Source of the DNA: Endomicrobiales bacterium
GTDB taxonomy: Bacteria > Elusimicrobiota > Endomicrobiia > Endomicrobiales > JALOBY01
DNA length: 64,000 bases
Direction: 5' to 3'
NCBI GenBank assembly: GCA_963796955.1
Contig: CAWCNJ010000005.1
Coordinates: 128,001-192,000 of the forward strand
In this document: positions 44,251 through 62,326 of the stretch, piece by piece
Position numbering within the stretch: position 1 is the first letter of the stretch
How the letters are laid out: every line of letters starts with the position of its first letter
Made by a program: the position numbers and the translations under genes
Notes under the pieces: generated by a model
What the model was told of the DNA's origin: nothing
What the model saw: the letters and a program-made list of their open reading frames with translations, nothing else
Database searches by the model: none

Positions 44251-44319
44251 GCACACCCCGCGAACAAGCCGAAAGCAAGCCCCTATTTTCTGGCCTTGCT
44301 AATATTCACAAATTTCCTC

Positions 44320-44358
44320 GCATGCTTGTACCCATTGGTAACCCAAATGGATACCTAC
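44320..44358 (+). repeat. 39-bp direct repeat, copy 1 (copy 2 at 46259-46297)
   Basis: GCATGCTTGTACCCATTGGTAACCCAAATGGATACCTAC; 37/39 identical to copy 2. Confidence 0.85.
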
Positions 44359-45620: not shown

Positions 45621-45653
45621 AAGTGAGCCAGGTACGAGGTACAGGTTACGGAT

Positions 45654-45684
45654 TCAGACTTAAGTAGCTTGAGTAAATTGACTT
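45654..45684 (+). repeat. Orphan copy of the Y1 element left end
   Basis: TCAGACTTAAGTAGCTTGAGTAAATTGACTT; 29/31 identical to 61382-61412. Confidence 0.8.
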
Positions 45685-45726
45685 ATTTGGAAGGAAGTGA
45701 GTAGAAGTATACATACCGCCCTTTGT

Positions 45727-45755
45727 TTGAGAAAATTCTTAAAGAATGCTATACT
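45727..45755 (+). promoter_or_regulatory. Sigma70-type promoter, copy 1
   Basis: TTGAGA-17 bp-TATACT with extended TG; near-identical copy at 49985. Confidence 0.75.
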
Positions 45756-45881
45756 GCCACCGATGGTAAATATGTGTTTTGTACAAGCTGGGATCAAGAA
45801 TAGACACCCAGTGGACAACCAGTGGTTTAGACCGGAAAATAGCCAAGCTAAAAAAAGCATTGAAAATACAACAAGATAAGC

Positions 45882-46025
45882 ACAAATGGAAGGATGGGCG
45901 CGTGTTGCGACGAACAGGAGCAACGAGAAACGCGCGGGCACCGCAGCAGAGCGAGGATGCCCCGGACGAGACAGAAAGTCAGCGTAAGCTTAGAAGATAG
46001 CGTAACAAATGGAAGGATGGCCGAG
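45882..46025 (+). repeat. 144-bp perfect direct repeat, copy 1 (copy 2 at 50059-50202)
   Basis: Base-by-base identity; contains two tRNA-Ser 5' ends and a structured insert. Confidence 0.95.
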
Positions 46026-46125
46026 TGGGCCACAGTGCGACGAATAGGAGCACAAGCTTGTGGCGGGCGCTTGATGAAAACGCACCGGAACCACATCCTG
46101 GACAGACTGTAACGAACGTAGTGAG
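45898..46125 (+). ncRNA. Two related structured inserts, each bounded by tRNA-Ser 5'-end duplications
   Basis: Shared hairpin with different but still paired stems and a conserved GC-GACGAAYAGGA-GC core. Confidence 0.5.
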
Positions 46126-46126
46126 T

Positions 46127-46165
46127 GGAAGGATGGCCGAGTGGTTTAAGGCGCTAGTCTTGAAA
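46127..46165 (+). pseudogene. tRNA-Ser(TGA) 5' half ending exactly at the end of the anticodon loop (att-like)
   Basis: GGAAGGATGGCCGAGTGGTTTAAGGCGCTAGTCTTGAAA; 38/39 identical to 50188-50226. Confidence 0.9.
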
Positions 46166-46258
46166 TCCTCCCGACGGTAAAACAGCAATTCCGACGACAA
46201 CCCCAAATCCCACGTTTTACCGACGACAAAAGCCATCTTGCGCATTAATGACAACCTT

Positions 46259-46317
46259 GCATGCTTGTACCCATTTGTAACCCAAATGGACACCTACTGG
46301 ACACCTGATAGACACCT
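46259..46317 (+). repeat. 39-bp repeat copy 2 plus three GACACCT repeats at 11-bp spacing
   Basis: GACACCT at 46289, 46300 and 46311. Confidence 0.75.
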
Positions 46318-46775
46318 GAAACCTTGATAGAAATATCAGGGTTTTTTTAATCCGTTGGCCCCATTACGTATAAGTTTACCAACGTTTTTCCCAATTACTG
46401 TGTAATTGTAAAACGTTGGAACGTCAACAAAAACGGAATTGGTATGTCAAGGGGGAGGGATACAGGGTGTTTGAGACGTAGAGCTATGTATCGGCCTTAT
46501 AAAAACAACTTCTAGTTAAACATATAGAGGTCACAGGCAATTTTTCAGTAAAAACGGCACGGAATAGGCAAAAACATGGACGCGCCTATTTCGACGTAAG
46601 GAGTTATGCAAAATGTCGTAACCTTAAAGTCCAAGTCCGTGGTGAGATCATTGAAGTGCCATGTCAGTTGTCAAAACGCTATCATAGAGGTACAATACAG
46701 CTAGAAGATCATTTCTATTGGGGAGAAAATCATAAATCATCGGAACATCCAATAGCAAATGTGGCGTAAATATAG

Positions 46776-46913
46776 CAATACGTAGAGGACTTTAATAAAA
46801 TTCCTGATGACGAATGGTATAAATTCATCCAGGCAAATACCAGTTTCGCAAACTGGAATGAGATGCAGAATAAAGCGGCGGGTGAGTGGGGTGCGAAAAA
46901 GATGGGCCTGTAA
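46776..46913 (+). pseudogene. C-terminal remnant of a small mobile-element hypothetical protein
   Basis: EDFNKIPDDEWYKFIQANTSFANWNEMQNKAAGEWGAKKMGL preceded by an in-frame TAG. Confidence 0.4.
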
Positions 46914-46927
46914 AGGGGTGATTGGCA

Positions 46928-48094
46928 ATGAATACACAATCCGCAGATCTTCTCATTAAATTTCTAGAAAGTGATGGTGTCAAATATCCACGAATCAGAG
47001 CGGGCAACGTTGATTTTCAGGAATATATTACCAGTATTTATCAGCAATATATTAAGGAGGTCAAAGACCACGCCGATGCCTTGAATGCTTTGGGATTAAT
47101 TGTTGATGACGAATTGCCATTTTTAATAAGCCAAATGGGAGCTATAAATGATGCATTAGAGGCATATTTGAAGGGACAACCCGCAAAAGCCTATAATTTT
47201 ATAGCGAAGTGGATGGATGATAATCGAAATGCATATCAAATACTTCAACCGAATTATGCGCAATACGAAGATCAAGTTGTTTCTCTGTACCGTATAAGGG
47301 AAATAAAATCCGAGGAAATAATAACAGAACCAAAAAACATGTTTCATGTGCCTTTTGAAAAAAGACATAAGATTAAGAGATATAGGTTTAGTATTCCAGG
47401 GTATCCATGTTTATATGCCGGTTCATCAGTTTATGCAAGTTGTCAAGAATTAAATGGTGTGTCGCTTAGTAATATATGTGCAATATTGTTAAAACCTACA
47501 GAAAAAAATATCAAAATTCTTGATTTTGGAATAACACCCAAACGGATCGCAGCATGCATAAGGAATATAGTGAAGGATGGTAATCAACATATATTACAAC
47601 GTGAACAAAACTGTAAGGATATTAAAGCACGGATTCTTATGTGGCCAATGCAAGTCGTAAGTATGCTTGAAGTTTTATATAAAGAGGAGCCATTTGTTCC
47701 AGAATACATAATACCACAACTTCTTCTTCAATATATACAAGATGATAAATATGGTAATCAAGTTATTTCGGGGATACGTTATTATTCAACGAAGTGCCAT
47801 ATACAAAATGACAATACAAGATTGGGTTGTAATTATGTATTTCCTGTTAAAACAATTAAAAAACAAGGATATTGTGCAAGCCTTATAAATCTATATCATG
47901 CTTCAGATCTAATTAATTATGCTGAATACATAAAAGGGAAACATTGGGGAACTCCTAGATCGTCAGATTCTTCCGAAGAAATTACTTTTGAGGATAACGG
48001 AATATCAAAAACCTTACCATATCTTAATACTGATATGTATACATTGGAAATGTGGCTTAACAATCTAAATAATACAGTGAGGCCAATATCGTAG
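46928..48094 (+). CDS. RES-domain-like protein
   Basis: LYRIR, FHVPF, RFSIPGYPCLY, EYIIPQLL and GIRYYS (R-E-S order); very AT-rich. Confidence 0.65.
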   Translation: MNTQSADLLIKFLESDGVKYPRIRAGNVDFQEYITSIYQQYIKEVKDHADALNALGLIVDDELPFLISQMGAINDALEAYLKGQPAKAYNFIAKWMDDNRNAYQILQPNYAQYEDQVVSLYRIREIKSEEIITEPKNMFHVPFEKRHKIKRYRFSIPGYPCLYAGSSVYASCQELNGVSLSNICAILLKPTEKNIKILDFGITPKRIAACIRNIVKDGNQHILQREQNCKDIKARILMWPMQVVSMLEVLYKEEPFVPEYIIPQLLLQYIQDDKYGNQVISGIRYYSTKCHIQNDNTRLGCNYVFPVKTIKKQGYCASLINLYHASDLINYAEYIKGKHWGTPRSSDSSEEITFEDNGISKTLPYLNTDMYTLEMWLNNLNNTVRPIS

Positions 48095-48211
48095 ATATTT
48101 AATCATGCCCAGTAGGTGAGTTCACGATTATTTTTTGTAATACACCTTGATAATTCAGGAACTTGATAACTCTTAAAATGATCTAAAACCAGGCACCAAC
48201 AAAGGCACATC

Positions 48212-48306
48212 CAAAGTTAACCACAAACTCCACAAGCTACTACGTTCCGCTTCGCTCTGGGAGCACGCTACACTTCGTACCTTGATGGATTTTATGGATA
48301 ACTTTG
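48212..48306. repeat. Imperfect ~26-bp inverted repeat enclosing a CGCTTCGCTC core
   Basis: CAAAGTTAACCACAAACTCCACAAG ... CTTGATGGATTTTATGGATAACTTTG. Confidence 0.6.
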
Positions 48307-48326
48307 ACATCCAAGTGGGTATTAAA

Positions 48327-49187
48327 TTATTTAATTTTTGTAAGAAGATTTTTAATTACTTCAACGGTTCTTTTTCTCAAGAAACCTTTCTCAAAGCTGC
48401 CGGGCAACAAGGCAAGTTCTTCAATTCCCTTTGGCCCGCGTGACGCCTCGGTTCTAAAATATTTCGTCAAGTTATCACAGAAATGGTTAAACATATCAGG
48501 ATCCTGGCTCTTATATCCTTTAAGCTTTGTATAAAATGCTTCTTTATTGGCTTCGGGAATATATTCAGCAACATAATATACTGACCACAGATCCTTCTTG
48601 AACTTATACTCGCCGTCTTTGCCTTTTACATCGCGTTCAGCGCAGGCAAGCCCTTTAAGGTAGAGATAAGCGGCAGGTACAGGTATTGTAACCTGGGCAG
48701 ATAACTTCCCAACCGTTACATCCGCCTTCATAAGGCTGGTTTTATCAAGCAGTATTTCCGTATATCCCATAGGTGCAACGTCTACGCCGTGTCCGGCAAC
48801 CCTTTCAATGAGCTTTGGGTCCATCAGCTCATGGCTTATAAGGTCTATCTTCATTTTTAACTCGCCGTTTACTACGGTGTAGCCAAACGGTTCAGCTTCT
48901 TTGGAGTATACTCTCCGTTTTGTATAAATAGCTTTGTGCGAAAACATCTCGGCCAGGGGTATTCCCTTAAACCCAAAGTTTTCTCTTACGGCATAGTCTA
49001 TGTCCGTTGTAGCCATTATGCGTGCGGTGCCAGGGTTTTTCCATACAAAATGCGTGTAAATGAACGGCAGCCAGCCGCCCACAAGAATAACATTGTCTTT
49101 ATACGGCTCCATATCTTTAAGAACTTGTACAAAAAGAGCCTCAGGGCTTATTTCAGGCTTGCCAGTGGAGGAATGAGCCATGTTCAC
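48327..49187 (-). CDS. Nucleotidyltransferase-fold protein (AbiEii/GSU2403-like), putative toxin
   Basis: LVGGW...TTDIDY (GG + DxD), KIDLI, LKG and KKDL. Confidence 0.7.
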   Translation of the reverse strand: MNMAHSSTGKPEISPEALFVQVLKDMEPYKDNVILVGGWLPFIYTHFVWKNPGTARIMATTDIDYAVRENFGFKGIPLAEMFSHKAIYTKRRVYSKEAEPFGYTVVNGELKMKIDLISHELMDPKLIERVAGHGVDVAPMGYTEILLDKTSLMKADVTVGKLSAQVTIPVPAAYLYLKGLACAERDVKGKDGEYKFKKDLWSVYYVAEYIPEANKEAFYTKLKGYKSQDPDMFNHFCDNLTKYFRTEASRGPKGIEELALLPGSFEKGFLRKRTVEVIKNLLTKIK

Positions 49188-49863
49188 CTCTTAAAATATT
49201 TTCCATGTGTGAGGCTTGTTGCAGAGCCATGGGATCCTTTGAAGATTTCATGCTCAGATAAGCGTAGAAATCCGGCGTAACGTGCGATCCTGGATTATAT
49301 ATTTCGGAGAGTTTATTAAGAAACCTGTGATATCTTGGCAAAACAATTTCTATATCGCCACCATGATGAACCTTGTTAATTCCGAGTTTTAGCTGTAGTT
49401 CCTGCTGTTTGTACCCGGCAAACCATTCGCGTTCAGGTATAAGTATGGTCAGCCGGTTATCCCGCACTTCTCTAAGGGCTGGCCTTACACCCTGCATACC
49501 ACCAATAAAAAACTTAATGTTTAATGATATAAGGTGCTTTATAATGTCATTATGCGAAAGCTTTGAAACATACTGGAACTGTTTCAACCTGTTATCAGCG
49601 AAGCCTTCAACGCACAGGGCAAGCAACCGTTTAGGGTTAATCAACCTTGACCCGCTATTGGGCCCACGGGCGGCAAGGCTTCTTACGATGATGCGATCTG
49701 CTATCAGAAGATTGAAGAACTCTACAACGTCACTATTCTTGTAACCCTTAAAATCAAGCGTTGACCAAACGGTAGCATCTTTATGATTGCCTGGCGCTGT
49801 CGCCTTCATAAGCATCTCATAAGCTATGCCAAGGTAGGACGATTTAATCTTTAAAAAGCCCAT
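49153..49863 (-). CDS. Putative AbiEi-like antitoxin/transcriptional regulator
   Basis: Upstream of and overlapping the nucleotidyltransferase; wHTH-like N-terminus with RLINPKRLL. Confidence 0.45.
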   Translation of the reverse strand: MGFLKIKSSYLGIAYEMLMKATAPGNHKDATVWSTLDFKGYKNSDVVEFFNLLIADRIIVRSLAARGPNSGSRLINPKRLLALCVEGFADNRLKQFQYVSKLSHNDIIKHLISLNIKFFIGGMQGVRPALREVRDNRLTILIPEREWFAGYKQQELQLKLGINKVHHGGDIEIVLPRYHRFLNKLSEIYNPGSHVTPDFYAYLSMKSSKDPMALQQASHMENILRGEHGSFLHWQA

Positions 49864-49984
49864 ATAGGCCCCTTTTTATATATTCCCCTTTTAGACACAT
49901 ATAATAAAGGGAATATATCTATTACCTTTATAGCATACGCTATCAAATATTGCAATGATTACGATTAGTACATCCGCACGTTTC

Positions 49985-50013
49985 TTGAGAAAGTCCTTAA
50001 AGAATGCTATACT
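49985..50013 (+). promoter_or_regulatory. Sigma70-type promoter, copy 2, upstream of the intact tRNA-Ser
   Basis: TTGAGA-17 bp-TATACT with extended TG. Confidence 0.8.
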
Positions 50014-50058
50014 GCCACCGATGTTAAATATGTAGTATGCCTGCTCTGAAAGATTTGT

Positions 50059-50202
50059 ACAAATGGAAGGATGGGCGCGTGTTGCGACGAACAGGAGCAA
50101 CGAGAAACGCGCGGGCACCGCAGCAGAGCGAGGATGCCCCGGACGAGACAGAAAGTCAGCGTAAGCTTAGAAGATAGCGTAACAAATGGAAGGATGGCCG
50201 AG
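50059..50202 (+). repeat. 144-bp perfect direct repeat, copy 2
   Basis: Identical to 45882-46025. Confidence 0.95.
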
Positions 50203-50275
50203 CGGTTTAAGGCGCTAGTCTTGAAAACTAGTGTAGGGTTATACTCTACCGGGGGTTCAAATCCCTCTCCTTCCG
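50188..50275 (+). tRNA. tRNA-Ser(TGA), CCA not encoded
   Basis: Acceptor GGAAGGA/TCCTTCC plus discriminator G; anticodon arm CTAGT-CTTGAAA-ACTAG; long variable arm; T-loop GTTCAAATC. Confidence 0.97.
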
Positions 50276-50315
50276 TTGTTTTTTGTCTGGGCCACGGGCC
50301 CATACAAAAAACAAC
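50275..50315 (+). terminator. Long hairpin immediately after the tRNA
   Basis: GTTGTTTTTTGT-CTGGGCC-ACG-GGCCCA-T-ACAAAAAACAAC. Confidence 0.5.
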
Positions 50316-50417
50316 TAATTGGCCAGGGATTTGAAGCTGACCCGACCGCTGCCGCGTAGGCAGAAAAAGGGAGGGCAGCCGATTGCGGGTGAGGGTACGA
50401 AGTACCCGATGGAGCAA

Positions 50418-50435
50418 AAATCCCTCTCCTTCCGT
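50418..50435 (+). repeat. 18-bp duplication of the tRNA-Ser 3' end
   Basis: AAATCCCTCTCCTTCCGT, identical to 50259-50276. Confidence 0.9.
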
Positions 50436-50663
50436 ATCATTTTTCAATCAGTTTTGAGTTGTAGAAATCGCACCTAAAAACACCCCGTTTTACCGTCTTG
50501 TGTCCGATTTGTGACGTGTCGTTGCGTCACAAGCCTAAAAAATGCAGAAAATCATAAAAATCTTACGCTCACTTTTTAGTGACCGTAGGATTTTTTTGTT
50601 GCCGAAATCCCCTCACCCGTTTACTGTGTTAGTAGGAAGTAAAATCGAGCAAGGGAGAAAAAC

Positions 50664-61300: not shown

Positions 61301-61432
61301 AATTTGATAAAACAGGGAATTTATGAAGTTCTGCACGATAAAGAAGAAGTTGAAAGAATTTTCCAAATTAAATGTACGGTGTCAGACTTAAGTAACTTAA
61401 GTAAATTGACTTTTCTGGCAGAAAATAGATAA
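58337..61432 (+). CDS. hsdR: Type I R-M restriction subunit, last residues replaced by Y1-element sequence
   Basis: RPDIVLYVNG..LELK, HTQGSGKS, DECHR, FTGTP and QAICRVNR. Confidence 0.93.
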   Translation: MNSVGQIERITQNRVVALFRDQLDYKYLGNWEDQPNNSNIVEAEVRKYLTGRGYSDALIARALDKLRDAANNYGESLYTNNQNVYKLLRYGIGIVESAGENHEQVHLIDWKHPEKNNFAIAEEVTIMGNREKRPDIVLYVNGIAIGVLELKRSTVSIGDGIRQSIVNQQKEFIESFFSTVQFVFAGNDTEGLRYGTIKTPEKYFLNWKEDEQNSSMLQLDKYLLKMCNKERLLEIIYDFVLFDGGYKKLPRPHQYFGIKAAQEYVRRREGGIIWHTQGSGKSLVMVWLAKWILENNPNARVVVLTDRIELDKQIERVFRDAGEVGIKRTISGTDLMGQLSQPLPRLLCSLIHKFGVRDVANFDAYIKELQNAPSSTVGELFVFVDECHRSESGKLHKAMKAILRNAVFIGFTGTPLLKKDKQTSREVFGKYIHTYKFNEAVEDGVVLDLVYEARDIDTKLSSNDKVDAWFEAKTKGLNDFQKHELKKKWGTMQQVLSSKSRLDKIVQDVVFDFSTRPRLSSDFGNAIVVAGSIYEATRYFEMFQNTSLKGKCALITSYNPATKDITTEGTGDNTETGKEYVYKMYTALLNDVVAEPGKTKSETYEDRAKLKFITEPANMKLLVVVDKLLVGFDAPPCTYLYIDKNMQDHGLFQAICRVNRLHTEDKDFGYIVDYKDLFSKLGDAYKVYATELDDLGNDTTNIDIVLKDRLAKGKERLDDALEAVALVCEPVLPPRDNLAYIHYFCGNPESKQDLKDTEVRRNALYKNTVALIRAYANIADEMSEAGYSTSEIDGVKKSLTKYLNLREEIRMASGEKLDLKTYEADMRHLIDTYIQAEDSRRIDPFENQSLLDIMVNSGIADAIKSLPDGIRSSKEAMQETIENNVRVKIIKDHLIDPAYFDEMSKLLNEIIRERKEKAVTYEEYLKRIAELAKRVANLTRNDLPARIQTGAQRALYDNLERKTELAIDVDTSVREHVRADWRGNVPAENLIKQGIYEVLHDKEEVERIFQIKCTVSDLSNLSKLTFLAENR

Positions 61433-62326
61433 AATCTGGTATGCCCAGACACCCGAGAATACACCAACCGGAGTTGTTGTTCCACGTAATGGCGCGTGGG
61501 AATAACAAACAGAAGATATTCAACTCGCCGAAAGATTACACTACCTTCCTGTCGATGTTGCGCGACACAAAGCAACGTTATCATTTCAAATTGTACGCCT
61601 ACGCTCTGATGCCTAACCACATCCATTTGCTGATCCAGGTAGGCGAACATCCAAGCGCCCGCATTATGCAGTCGGTGCTTACTGGCTATGCAAGATATTA
61701 CAACCGGGCGTATAAACGCAGCGGGCATCTTTTCCAGGGAAGATATAAGGCGATCCTTTGCGAGAGAGATGCTTATGCCATGTGGCTTGTGAGATATATC
61801 CACCTTAACCCTGTAAGAGCGCATCTTGTTGGTGTGGTCGATCAATGGAGGTGGACGGGCCATGCTGAATATGCCGGCACCGAAAAACAGGATATGATAG
61901 ACGCTGGTGTGGTTGCAGAGTTGTTTGGCAAAGGATCAATGGGGCTGCTAATTACAGGGAATATTTATCAGACGGTCTTGCTCAGGGGTGTAAATACGAT
62001 GAAGACCTCCATCCATCTGATAGTTCACCGTTTTTAGGGAGTGATCGTTTCAAGGAAGAAGTGGTATATAAAGTTGATCAACTCGTTGAAACCAAGCGCA
62101 AGTCGTTACGTGATATAATCCTTGAGCAGACGCAAGATACCGGTGTAAGCCCTGAAATGGTCCTTGGAAAGAGCAGGAAGAAGAAGGTCGCAATGATTCG
62201 TAGAAATGTAATAATCAAAGCTGTGACAGAATATGGATATATAGCTTCGGAGCTAGCCAGGCAGTTAAATCGCAGCGAGGCGTATATCAGTATGGTAGTT
62301 AGTTAAGTTACTTAAGTCTGACACCG
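61377..62326 (+). mobile_element. Y1/RAYT-type element with 24-bp perfect terminal inverted repeats
   Basis: CGGTGTCAGACTTAAGTAACTTAA at 61377-61400; its reverse complement at 62303-62326. Confidence 0.85.
61441..62306 (+). CDS. HUH Y1 transposase (RAYT-like) with C-terminal HTH; frameshift near 61945
   Basis: HVMARGNNK, MPNHIHLL (HUH), GHLFQGRY, YIHLNP; HTH in the 62061-62306 ORF. Confidence 0.88.

Follow-up and report, generated by a model that had tools for sequence, protein, structure and literature searches.

A core of 58 to 65 nt that is defined by its structure, two abutting hairpins, is present at many unrelated sites in bacterial genomes; it is specific to one strand, and compensatory changes keep its stems paired. 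The family that it defines belongs to the small structured non-autonomous repeats. The window, i.e., the whole 64-kb stretch of an Endomicrobiales genome (G000) that we analyzed, holds three copies upstream of tRNA-Ser sequence, where the original prediction had described structured units of about 100 nt. Only the core proved to be conserved, and the remainder of each unit is a variable tail.

The tRNA-Ser locus

The tRNA-start 10-mer GGAAGGATGG lies at 45888, 46011, and 46127, with spacings of 123 and 116 nt, just as had been noted from the sequence; it occurs five times in the window, against about 0.06 occurrences per strand expected arithmetically for a given 10-mer. The exact repeats said to flank the inserts are likewise present (16 nt, ACAAATGGAAGGATGG, at insert 1; 19 nt, TGGAAGGATGGCCGAGTGG, at insert 2), and both inserts have the stems described for them, with the 5-nt bulge and the GACGAAYAGGA loop. 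The features of the locus are as follows.

45727..45755, plus strand: sigma-70-like promoter before the array, a consensus match only; repeated at 49985-50013
45882..45897, plus strand: 16-nt repeat, copy 1 (tRNA-Ser positions 1-10 and the 6 nt before them; last letters GG)
45898..45965, plus strand: core of insert 1, class B; outer stem 45898-45903/45930-45935
Within 45898..45965, plus strand: inner stem of insert 1, with tandem GA, a GAACA loop, and a 5-nt 3' bulge
45936-45962, plus strand: second hairpin of insert 1, followed by CGG
45966..46004, plus strand: variable tail of unit 1, without family conservation
46005..46028, plus strand: 16-nt repeat, copy 2, continuing as 19-nt repeat, copy 1 (tRNA positions 1-18, ending in the D-loop GG)
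46029..46088, plus strand: core of insert 2, class A; outer stem 46029-46034/46059-46064; model match of 65 bits
Within 46029..46088, plus strand: inner stem of insert 2, with a GAATA loop
46065-46085, plus strand: second hairpin of insert 2, in which the GAG..TGA loop motif of the family is lost, followed by CGG
46089..46125, plus strand: tail of unit 2, beginning with CCACATCCT; this stretch is complementary to the tRNA piece that is duplicated, a feature shared by related tRNA-Ser units
46126..46165, plus strand: tRNA-Ser(TGA) truncated to its 5' half, which runs to the anticodon loop; left junction of the integrated module
46166..50226, plus strand: module of about 4 kb without integrase, with its own promoter, insert 1, and tRNA 5' half; missing in one run-X2 contig
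50059..50181, plus strand: third unit (16-nt repeat 50059-50074, core 50075-50142, tail), identical to unit 1
50187..50276, plus strand: intact tRNA-Ser(TGA), called by ARAGORN and Rfam

A fold common to both inserts had been proposed. Insert 1 adopts it at its minimum free energy (z of -2.6 to -2.9), whereas insert 2 is unremarkable when taken alone; folded on the plus strand it has a z of -0.2 to -0.75, and the family fold lies 2.6 kcal/mol above its minimum. The inserts had also been placed between a promoter and a tRNA gene. A sigma-70-like promoter (TTGAGA-17-TATACT, 10 of 12 consensus positions matched) does lie upstream, but the sequence at 46127 that was read as the tRNA is dead, a 5' half that reaches no further than the anticodon loop. 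The one tRNA that ARAGORN and Rfam find in the whole window is the intact tRNA-Ser(TGA), and it is preceded by a third copy of insert 1, letter for letter the same, together with a copy of the promoter, neither of which figured in the original prediction.

Dead half and intact gene are separated by a module of about 4 kb, which comprises three ORFs and has arm-like direct repeats at its left end; no integrase match was found within 46166-50226. In one run-X2 contig (depth, 2.9), insert 2 leads straight into the intact tRNA, with 4,061 bases skipped, and a strain therefore exists in which unit 2 stands before the whole tRNA. One run-X4 contig (depth, 2.1) follows unit 2 and departs from the window sequence at 46006, which is a weak hint of an allele without unit 1. 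Among the sequencing runs listed as containing the stretch, the best DNA share was 0.16 and there was no RNA run, a result that says nothing about expression. In the available part of a survey of genomic islands, a displaced 5' tRNA fragment is documented for a small minority, 159 of 3,919 (PMC4383910). Islands of this kind, as far as that part of the survey describes them, account for the module and for the truncated tRNA in front of it (46126-46165); they explain the arrangement of the locus, not the 60-nt core, and the module here has no integrase match.

The tRNA-Ser is flanked on its other side by a second island, since the tRNA 3' half recurs 16.6 kb further on, outside the window. This 16.6-kb island extends from window position 50220 to G000 C5:194849, ends in a 56-nt tRNA 3' half, and contains type I restriction-modification-like ORFs, a Y1 transposase, an integrase fragment, and a Fic gene. 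Several other features of the surroundings may be recorded here. A 43-nt repeat with short TGGACACC-type direct repeats (44316-44358 and 46255-46331) marks the left ends of two tandem modules, in the manner of integrase arm sites, and the first of these modules carries an AAA-DUF4143 gene. The stretches 46922-48094 and 48327-49863 encode a 390-amino-acid ORF that matches nothing in Pfam and, as a pair, a nucleotidyltransferase (PF12281) and a 236-amino-acid ORF without match; this pair may be of the type IV toxin-antitoxin or defense kind. A Y1 (RAYT-like) gene at 61441-62037 is enclosed by 28-nt inverted repeats (61377-62326), and a lone copy of this 28-nt repeat is found at 45647-45696, just upstream of the array promoter.

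Structure and distribution of the core

The first hairpin of the core combines an outer stem of 6 to 7 bp with an inner stem of 4 to 5 bp, usually with tandem GA and with a closing C-G or G-C pair. Among 69 non-redundant rows of 107, its GAAYA(A) loop is conserved at 94 to 97% per position, and the 3' bulge of 5 to 6 nt has G as its third base in 91%. The second hairpin sets apart class A, the type of insert 2, with C-GAG..TGA-G and a loop that may hold an extra stem, from class B, the type of insert 1, in which this hairpin is different. Conservation of the class A motif reaches 88% at G47, 91% at A48, 90% at T53, 94% at G54, and 93% at A55. We take this motif to resemble an RNA kink-loop, with tandem G-A pairs on the stem and a U just before the 3' GA; judged by sequence only, class A fits a kink-loop-type pattern, and class B and insert 2 lack it. 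The GGAC..AGAC element, which had been listed as a feature common to both inserts, was rejected as a family motif, as it lies outside the conserved core and was found in 1 of 176 members, a set that does not include insert 2.

Pairing preserved despite sequence change had been read as a sign of selection on structure, and the family alignments show the strong covariation that this implies. In 97 sequences, aligned by fitting to the model and counted without regard to their relatedness, 94% of the cells are paired and 17 of 18 pairs have changed on both sides; none of 500 shuffles reached as high, and slid alignments were 21 to 52% paired. Counted in the same way, an unfitted seed of 22 sequences shows covariation at 15 of 22 pairs and class B at 10 of 21. 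The top covarying columns form nested stems throughout, with no pseudoknot and no invariant unpaired C. The given strand folds better than its complement in 141 of 144 cores with RNA parameters and in 138 of 144 with DNA parameters; the strand therefore matters, and a bias so equal does not distinguish RNA from DNA.

A family not yet described had been predicted, and Rfam 15 indeed holds no match to the inserts or the core. At gathering score, the tRNA was the only hit in the window, and E-value scans of 45700-46350 and of 20 homologous loci, ribozymes and introns included, returned no core match. Homologues of the inserts, for which a search had been proposed, are numerous. The class A model matches 37 of the 122 genomes of the class, among them 26 of the 67 that are near-complete, and a single genome can have as many as 41 matches; the class B model matches 9 of the 122, with 13 strong matches in 7 genomes. 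The loop pattern occurs in 27 of 301 genomes of the phylum (reversed control, 3), and an exact 20-letter pattern was found in at least 122 stretches of the GTDB collection. Of the 80 GTDB matches listed, 59 are labeled Nitrospirota; the others listed belong to Elusimicrobiota, Planctomycetia, Omnitrophota, unnamed bacteria, and one Acidobacteriota, the last in a Nitrospira-type context and possibly misbinned. Metagenomes added 99 stretches with the core pattern. Two core patterns gave 0 matches in viral contigs, and blastn gave 0 core matches in plasmids and phages. In G000 itself, three further copies precede tRNA-Glu(TTC), tRNA-Glu(CTC), and tRNA-Gln(CTG), and all six copies lie just upstream of a tRNA gene or fragment. 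Units at tRNA-Ser with similar tails recur in several families.

Targets, junctions, and tails

The element had been thought to target tRNA genes and to insert with target duplication. Among 176 distinct copies, which a structure-driven script extracted from the collected sequences and which form a sample biased by the search patterns, only 28 have a tRNA fragment as left flank, a lower bound given that the flank had to be a fragment of an intact tRNA within 450 nt. Duplication lengths vary widely, and most copies borne by repeats have no duplication at all, a few target bases being replaced instead. The element is therefore neither specific to tRNA genes nor tied to a fixed duplication. The tRNA-fragment copies are in sense orientation in 27 of 28 cases, involve nine isoacceptors, and interrupt the tRNA near positions 10, 19, 23-26, 41, and 46.

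By type of flank, the 176 copies divide into 35 with a duplication, 38 in GTCA-type hairpin repeats, 18 in CCCT-type repeats, 29 in a Nitrospira MITE, and 56 others. The targets thus comprise tRNA copies, GTCA- and CCCTC-type palindromic repeats, the Nitrospira MITE, the element itself (cores nested inside other cores in L008 and L210), and, once, a protein gene start. The GTCA-type carrier hairpins presumably resemble NTS/dRS3/SRM repeats. High copy numbers come largely from riding in self-amplifying repeats. Empty target sites, the existence of which had been put forward as a check, were found for the MITE, the GTCA hairpin (22 empty matches), and the CCCTC repeat (28 empty matches).

The left junction is well defined. 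The flank ends in GG in 119 and in CA in 33 of the 176 copies, against about 5% each in the nearby flank, and TA is also seen; apart from GG or CA, the left-flank columns are variable. NGG follows the core in 108 of the 119 GG-flanked copies. Comparison of 32 junctions with the flank in its uninterrupted form showed a loss of 0 to 10 target bases overall, with 3 bases missing in 16 junctions and 4 in 8; the core was followed by 0 to 26 extra bases, often a third hairpin. A repeat of at least 12 nt ends at the left edge of 36 of 207 copies versus 9 of 204 controls. At L128, an exact 54-nt duplication of a protein gene start surrounds the core, with 4 bases between core and repeat. Duplications appear where the target is a gene that must be kept. 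Every clear tRNA 5' duplicate found in G000 contains a structured insert.

The tails are of more than one kind, some matching the native continuation of the target and others the reverse complement of the left flank. In L016, L022, and L040 the tail resumes the tRNA sequence, and in unit 2 of the window, L002, L247, and L243 it is complementary to the duplicated fragment. In nascent units, the tail pairs with the upstream tRNA fragment more than shuffled tails do in 14 of 20 cases (8.2 versus 6.1 pairs; units not independent), and pairing counted from the junction averages 2.74 pairs versus 2.38 with swapped tails (31 units, not independent). The idea that tails protect the fold of the downstream tRNA was not supported at equilibrium: folding of the full precursors gave no sign that native tails favor the correct tRNA fold, and with native and shuffled tails alike, the duplicate is predicted to pair with the 3' strand of the tRNA in most units. 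For the tail of insert 2 as a mere remnant of a tRNA-Ser(GGA) anticodon arm, the evidence was mixed.

Other structured sequences were seen at tRNA genes as well. At G000 C4:10890-10986, a 10-nt 5' duplicate of tRNA-Leu(TAA) stands before a structured insert of another kind, which suggests that further families have the same habit. The window also holds, at 50321-50436, a member of another structured family, unrelated to the first, in which it is the 3' end of the tRNA that is duplicated (18-nt repeat at 50259 and 50418), and five more copies lie just downstream of tRNAs in this genome; one run-X2 contig lacks the window element, skipping 159 nt, and the two-hairpin core can sit inside this family (L095). 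L005:1400-1800 contains tandem units antisense to tRNA-Arg(CCT), in which class B cores and other hairpin modules occupy duplicated tRNA 3' parts. In L243, L248, L249, and L301, the downstream tRNAs are interrupted near the anticodon by other sequence and are not called by ARAGORN. In L452, L441, and L437, the two carrier halves to the left and right of the core come from different repeats, owing to either recombination between copies or assembly chimeras.

Mode of spread and relation to known repeats

With no more than moderate confidence, we favor a non-autonomous element that an enzyme supplied in trans copies into new sites by way of single strands and that is kept at tRNAs only if the duplication restores the gene. 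An enzyme encoded elsewhere that recognizes hairpins would nick the structured target; nucleases of the Ssn-type GIY-YIG, DUF559, or RAYT kind are candidates. Repair synthesis would then switch template to an existing copy of the core, and synthesis that resumes upstream of the nick would duplicate the 5' part of the target. Within a tRNA gene, such an insertion would survive only if the duplication left an intact tRNA downstream, which would yield units like those at this locus, and unequal recombination between repeats could generate tandem arrays. In the window, an integrative module would later have acquired a promoter, unit 1, and a tRNA 5' half and would have cut the tRNA behind unit 2 at the anticodon loop. 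Partial precedents can be found in the available portions of two reports: SsnA cuts one strand only of single-stranded hairpin repeats (PMC11893778), and TnpA-REP cuts and rejoins single strands and has been proposed as a builder of tandem arrays (PMC3333891). Against such copying-in, the cut reported there for SsnA lies outside the hairpin and that of TnpA-REP at CT, and neither matches GG; the kink-loop-like motif of the second hairpin would be superfluous for an element acting purely as DNA; and no enzyme gene is tied to the element, whose mobility is inferred from sequence.

The search for such an enzyme covered both neighbors and genome content. No recurring neighbor gene was found among 147 ORFs at 80 GTDB loci or 92 ORFs at 57 other loci. 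Conversely, 80 loci around reverse-transcriptase, Y1, GIY-YIG, and DUF559 genes contained one copy, at a DUF559 locus and inside a carrier repeat. None of the 20 best Y1 loci holds a core copy, and no model match lies within about 1.5 kb at 30 GIY-YIG loci; in genome G006, two copies lie within about 130 nt of GIY-YIG matches, at least one of them inside a GTCA carrier. Among the nine genomes with at least 14 copies, all nine have a strong short GIY-YIG match, six a strong DUF559 match, and five a Y1 match, the last being missing in the other four. Over the 122 genomes, Y1, GIY-YIG, and DUF559 correlate with the element about equally, in a sample in which kin are not independent, and these correlations may merely mark genomes rich in mobile DNA. 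A parent element of the TnpB or IS110 type was not found in five high-copy genomes (0 of 5 each), and the DDE transposase PF01609 was present in one of five. A gene-bearing parent with its gene in the second hairpin was also considered and rejected, as none of 93 metagenome copies has a gene there. The element has no gene of its own.

It is unlikely, in our estimate, that the element is instead an RNA-level mini-retroelement or mini-intron, co-transcribed, cut at the GG junction by itself or by a host nuclease, and reverse-transcribed back in trans, the tail serving as a guide by pairing with target sequence immediately upstream, like the EBS/IBS of group II introns. The kink-loop-like C-GA-G..U-GA-G motif and its G-U pair, conserved at 88 to 94%, would make sense for such an RNA, as would the sense orientation of nearly all tRNA copies, the tandem units, the duplications of variable length, including the exact one at L128, and the excess of tail pairing over shuffled and swapped tails. 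That pairing, however, is missing at L128 and in several of the units, many of which are related by descent. Reverse transcriptase gave no match in the nine high-copy genomes and matches 7 of 37 carriers versus 8 of 85 non-carriers, and 0 of 10 reverse-transcriptase loci hold a core copy. Rfam ribozyme or intron matches, a pseudoknot among the covarying columns, and copies in viral contigs, phages, or plasmids were likewise not found. A minimal mobile RNA class that is protein-free in cis, with a 60-nt catalytic or protein-docking core and a 3' guide tail that pairs 5' of the site, inserts at GG in structured RNA or single-stranded DNA, and rebuilds the 5' end of its target by duplication, seems to us quite improbable.

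Alternatively, the duplications might be scars of integrase-driven islands that brought a promoter and a tRNA 5' half, with the element landing harmlessly in the dead halves. The window module is such a case, with its empty site in one run-X2 contig, tRNA sequence continues behind the core up to the anticodon loop in G000 C2, L040, and L289, and islands with a 5' tRNA fragment are on record (PMC4383910, in the part available). Nevertheless, we consider this explanation improbable: at L128 an exact duplication of a gene start lies flush with the core where no tRNA is involved, many tRNA units have short tails and no tRNA remainder, the clear tRNA 5' duplicates of G000 all hold a structured insert, and the mechanism of insertion would still be unaccounted for. 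A domesticated host RNA, acting as a leader module that tunes tRNA processing or as a released small RNA, would fit the recurrence of tRNA-Ser units with similar tails, the placement of the six G000 copies, and the conservation of loop sequences across phyla but is very improbable, given that it was not found in 85 of the 122 genomes of the class (41 of the 67 near-complete ones), that most copies lie in unrelated repeats, that insert 2 has lost the conserved motif, and that equilibrium folding gave no sign of native tails aiding the tRNA fold.

Returning to the single-strand reading, we compared the element with known small repeats, relying for each on the available part of the source. Like REP/BIME sequences mobilized by RAYT (TnpA-REP), it consists of short, imperfect, strand-specific hairpins, is non-autonomous, and forms tandem arrays with variable junctions; unlike them, its core is two abutting hairpins rather than one palindrome, lacks a GTAG foot, has its junction after GG or CA instead of CT, inserts into other repeats and tRNA copies, and does not flank Y1 genes at the 20 loci considered (PMC3333891). 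The NTS/dRS3/SRM repeats served by Ssn GIY-YIG enzymes are brought to mind by the Ssn-like genes of all nine high-copy genomes, but the core is a passenger in such repeats and also in unrelated carriers (PMC11893778). TwoAYGGAY RNA (RF01731) is likewise a multi-copy, two-hairpin intergenic element of variable copy number, conserved in structure and without known function, that is associated with REP arrays; our core differs in having no RF01731 match, in its GAAYA(A) and GAG..UGA loops in place of AYGGAY, in its length of about 60 nt, and in forming units with tRNA fragments (bioRxiv 10.64898/2026.09.22.753630).

With bacterial MITEs the element shares small size, lack of coding capacity, a stable fold, and filled and empty sites, but it has no terminal inverted repeats or fixed duplication and rides inside a MITE in Nitrospirota (PMC3184786, available part); over 176 copies, a mean of 2.3 and a maximum of 6 of 10 end positions were complementary. 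Theta (HDV-like) ribozymes, too, are small structured RNAs that adjoin tRNA genes and have a first stem of 6 to 7 bp followed by GG. As described in the part of the source at hand, they have a pseudoknotted fold, are located on the 3' side of phage tRNAs, and depend on a catalytic C (PMC10879173). The core, in contrast, shows no pseudoknot and sits in 5' fragments, and viral contigs yielded no copy of it; an HDV-like nested double pseudoknot with a catalytic C in J4/2 does not agree with the covarying columns. Retroelements linked to reverse transcriptase (group II-like, retrozyme, UG27 array) differ in that none of the nine high-copy genomes has a match to the enzyme. In short, and within what these partly available sources describe, the element works like REP-type and TwoAYGGAY repeats and fails the tested defining features of MITEs, REPs, theta ribozymes, and reverse-transcriptase-linked arrays. 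No description of it was found in the literature covered, a search that stopped short of most subscription papers and of the motif supplements of comparative-genomics RNA papers.

The origin and spread of REP-like and other small bacterial repeats are still largely open, and the family makes them unusually accessible: the loops of its 60-nt core are fixed, the left junction is defined, sites are known in both filled and empty form, and the unrelated targets number more than a dozen. Short oligonucleotides should therefore be enough for assays of candidate enzymes and of self-cleavage. Should the guide-bearing RNA reading prove true, this would be the smallest guide-bearing mobile element, parasitizing tRNA genes and repeats across phyla. 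As an element living inside other repeats, the family represents a second tier of parasitism. In Elusimicrobiota-like and Nitrospirota genomes, it also accounts for odd 5' fragments of tRNAs, which might otherwise be taken for tRNA genes or for scars left by islands.
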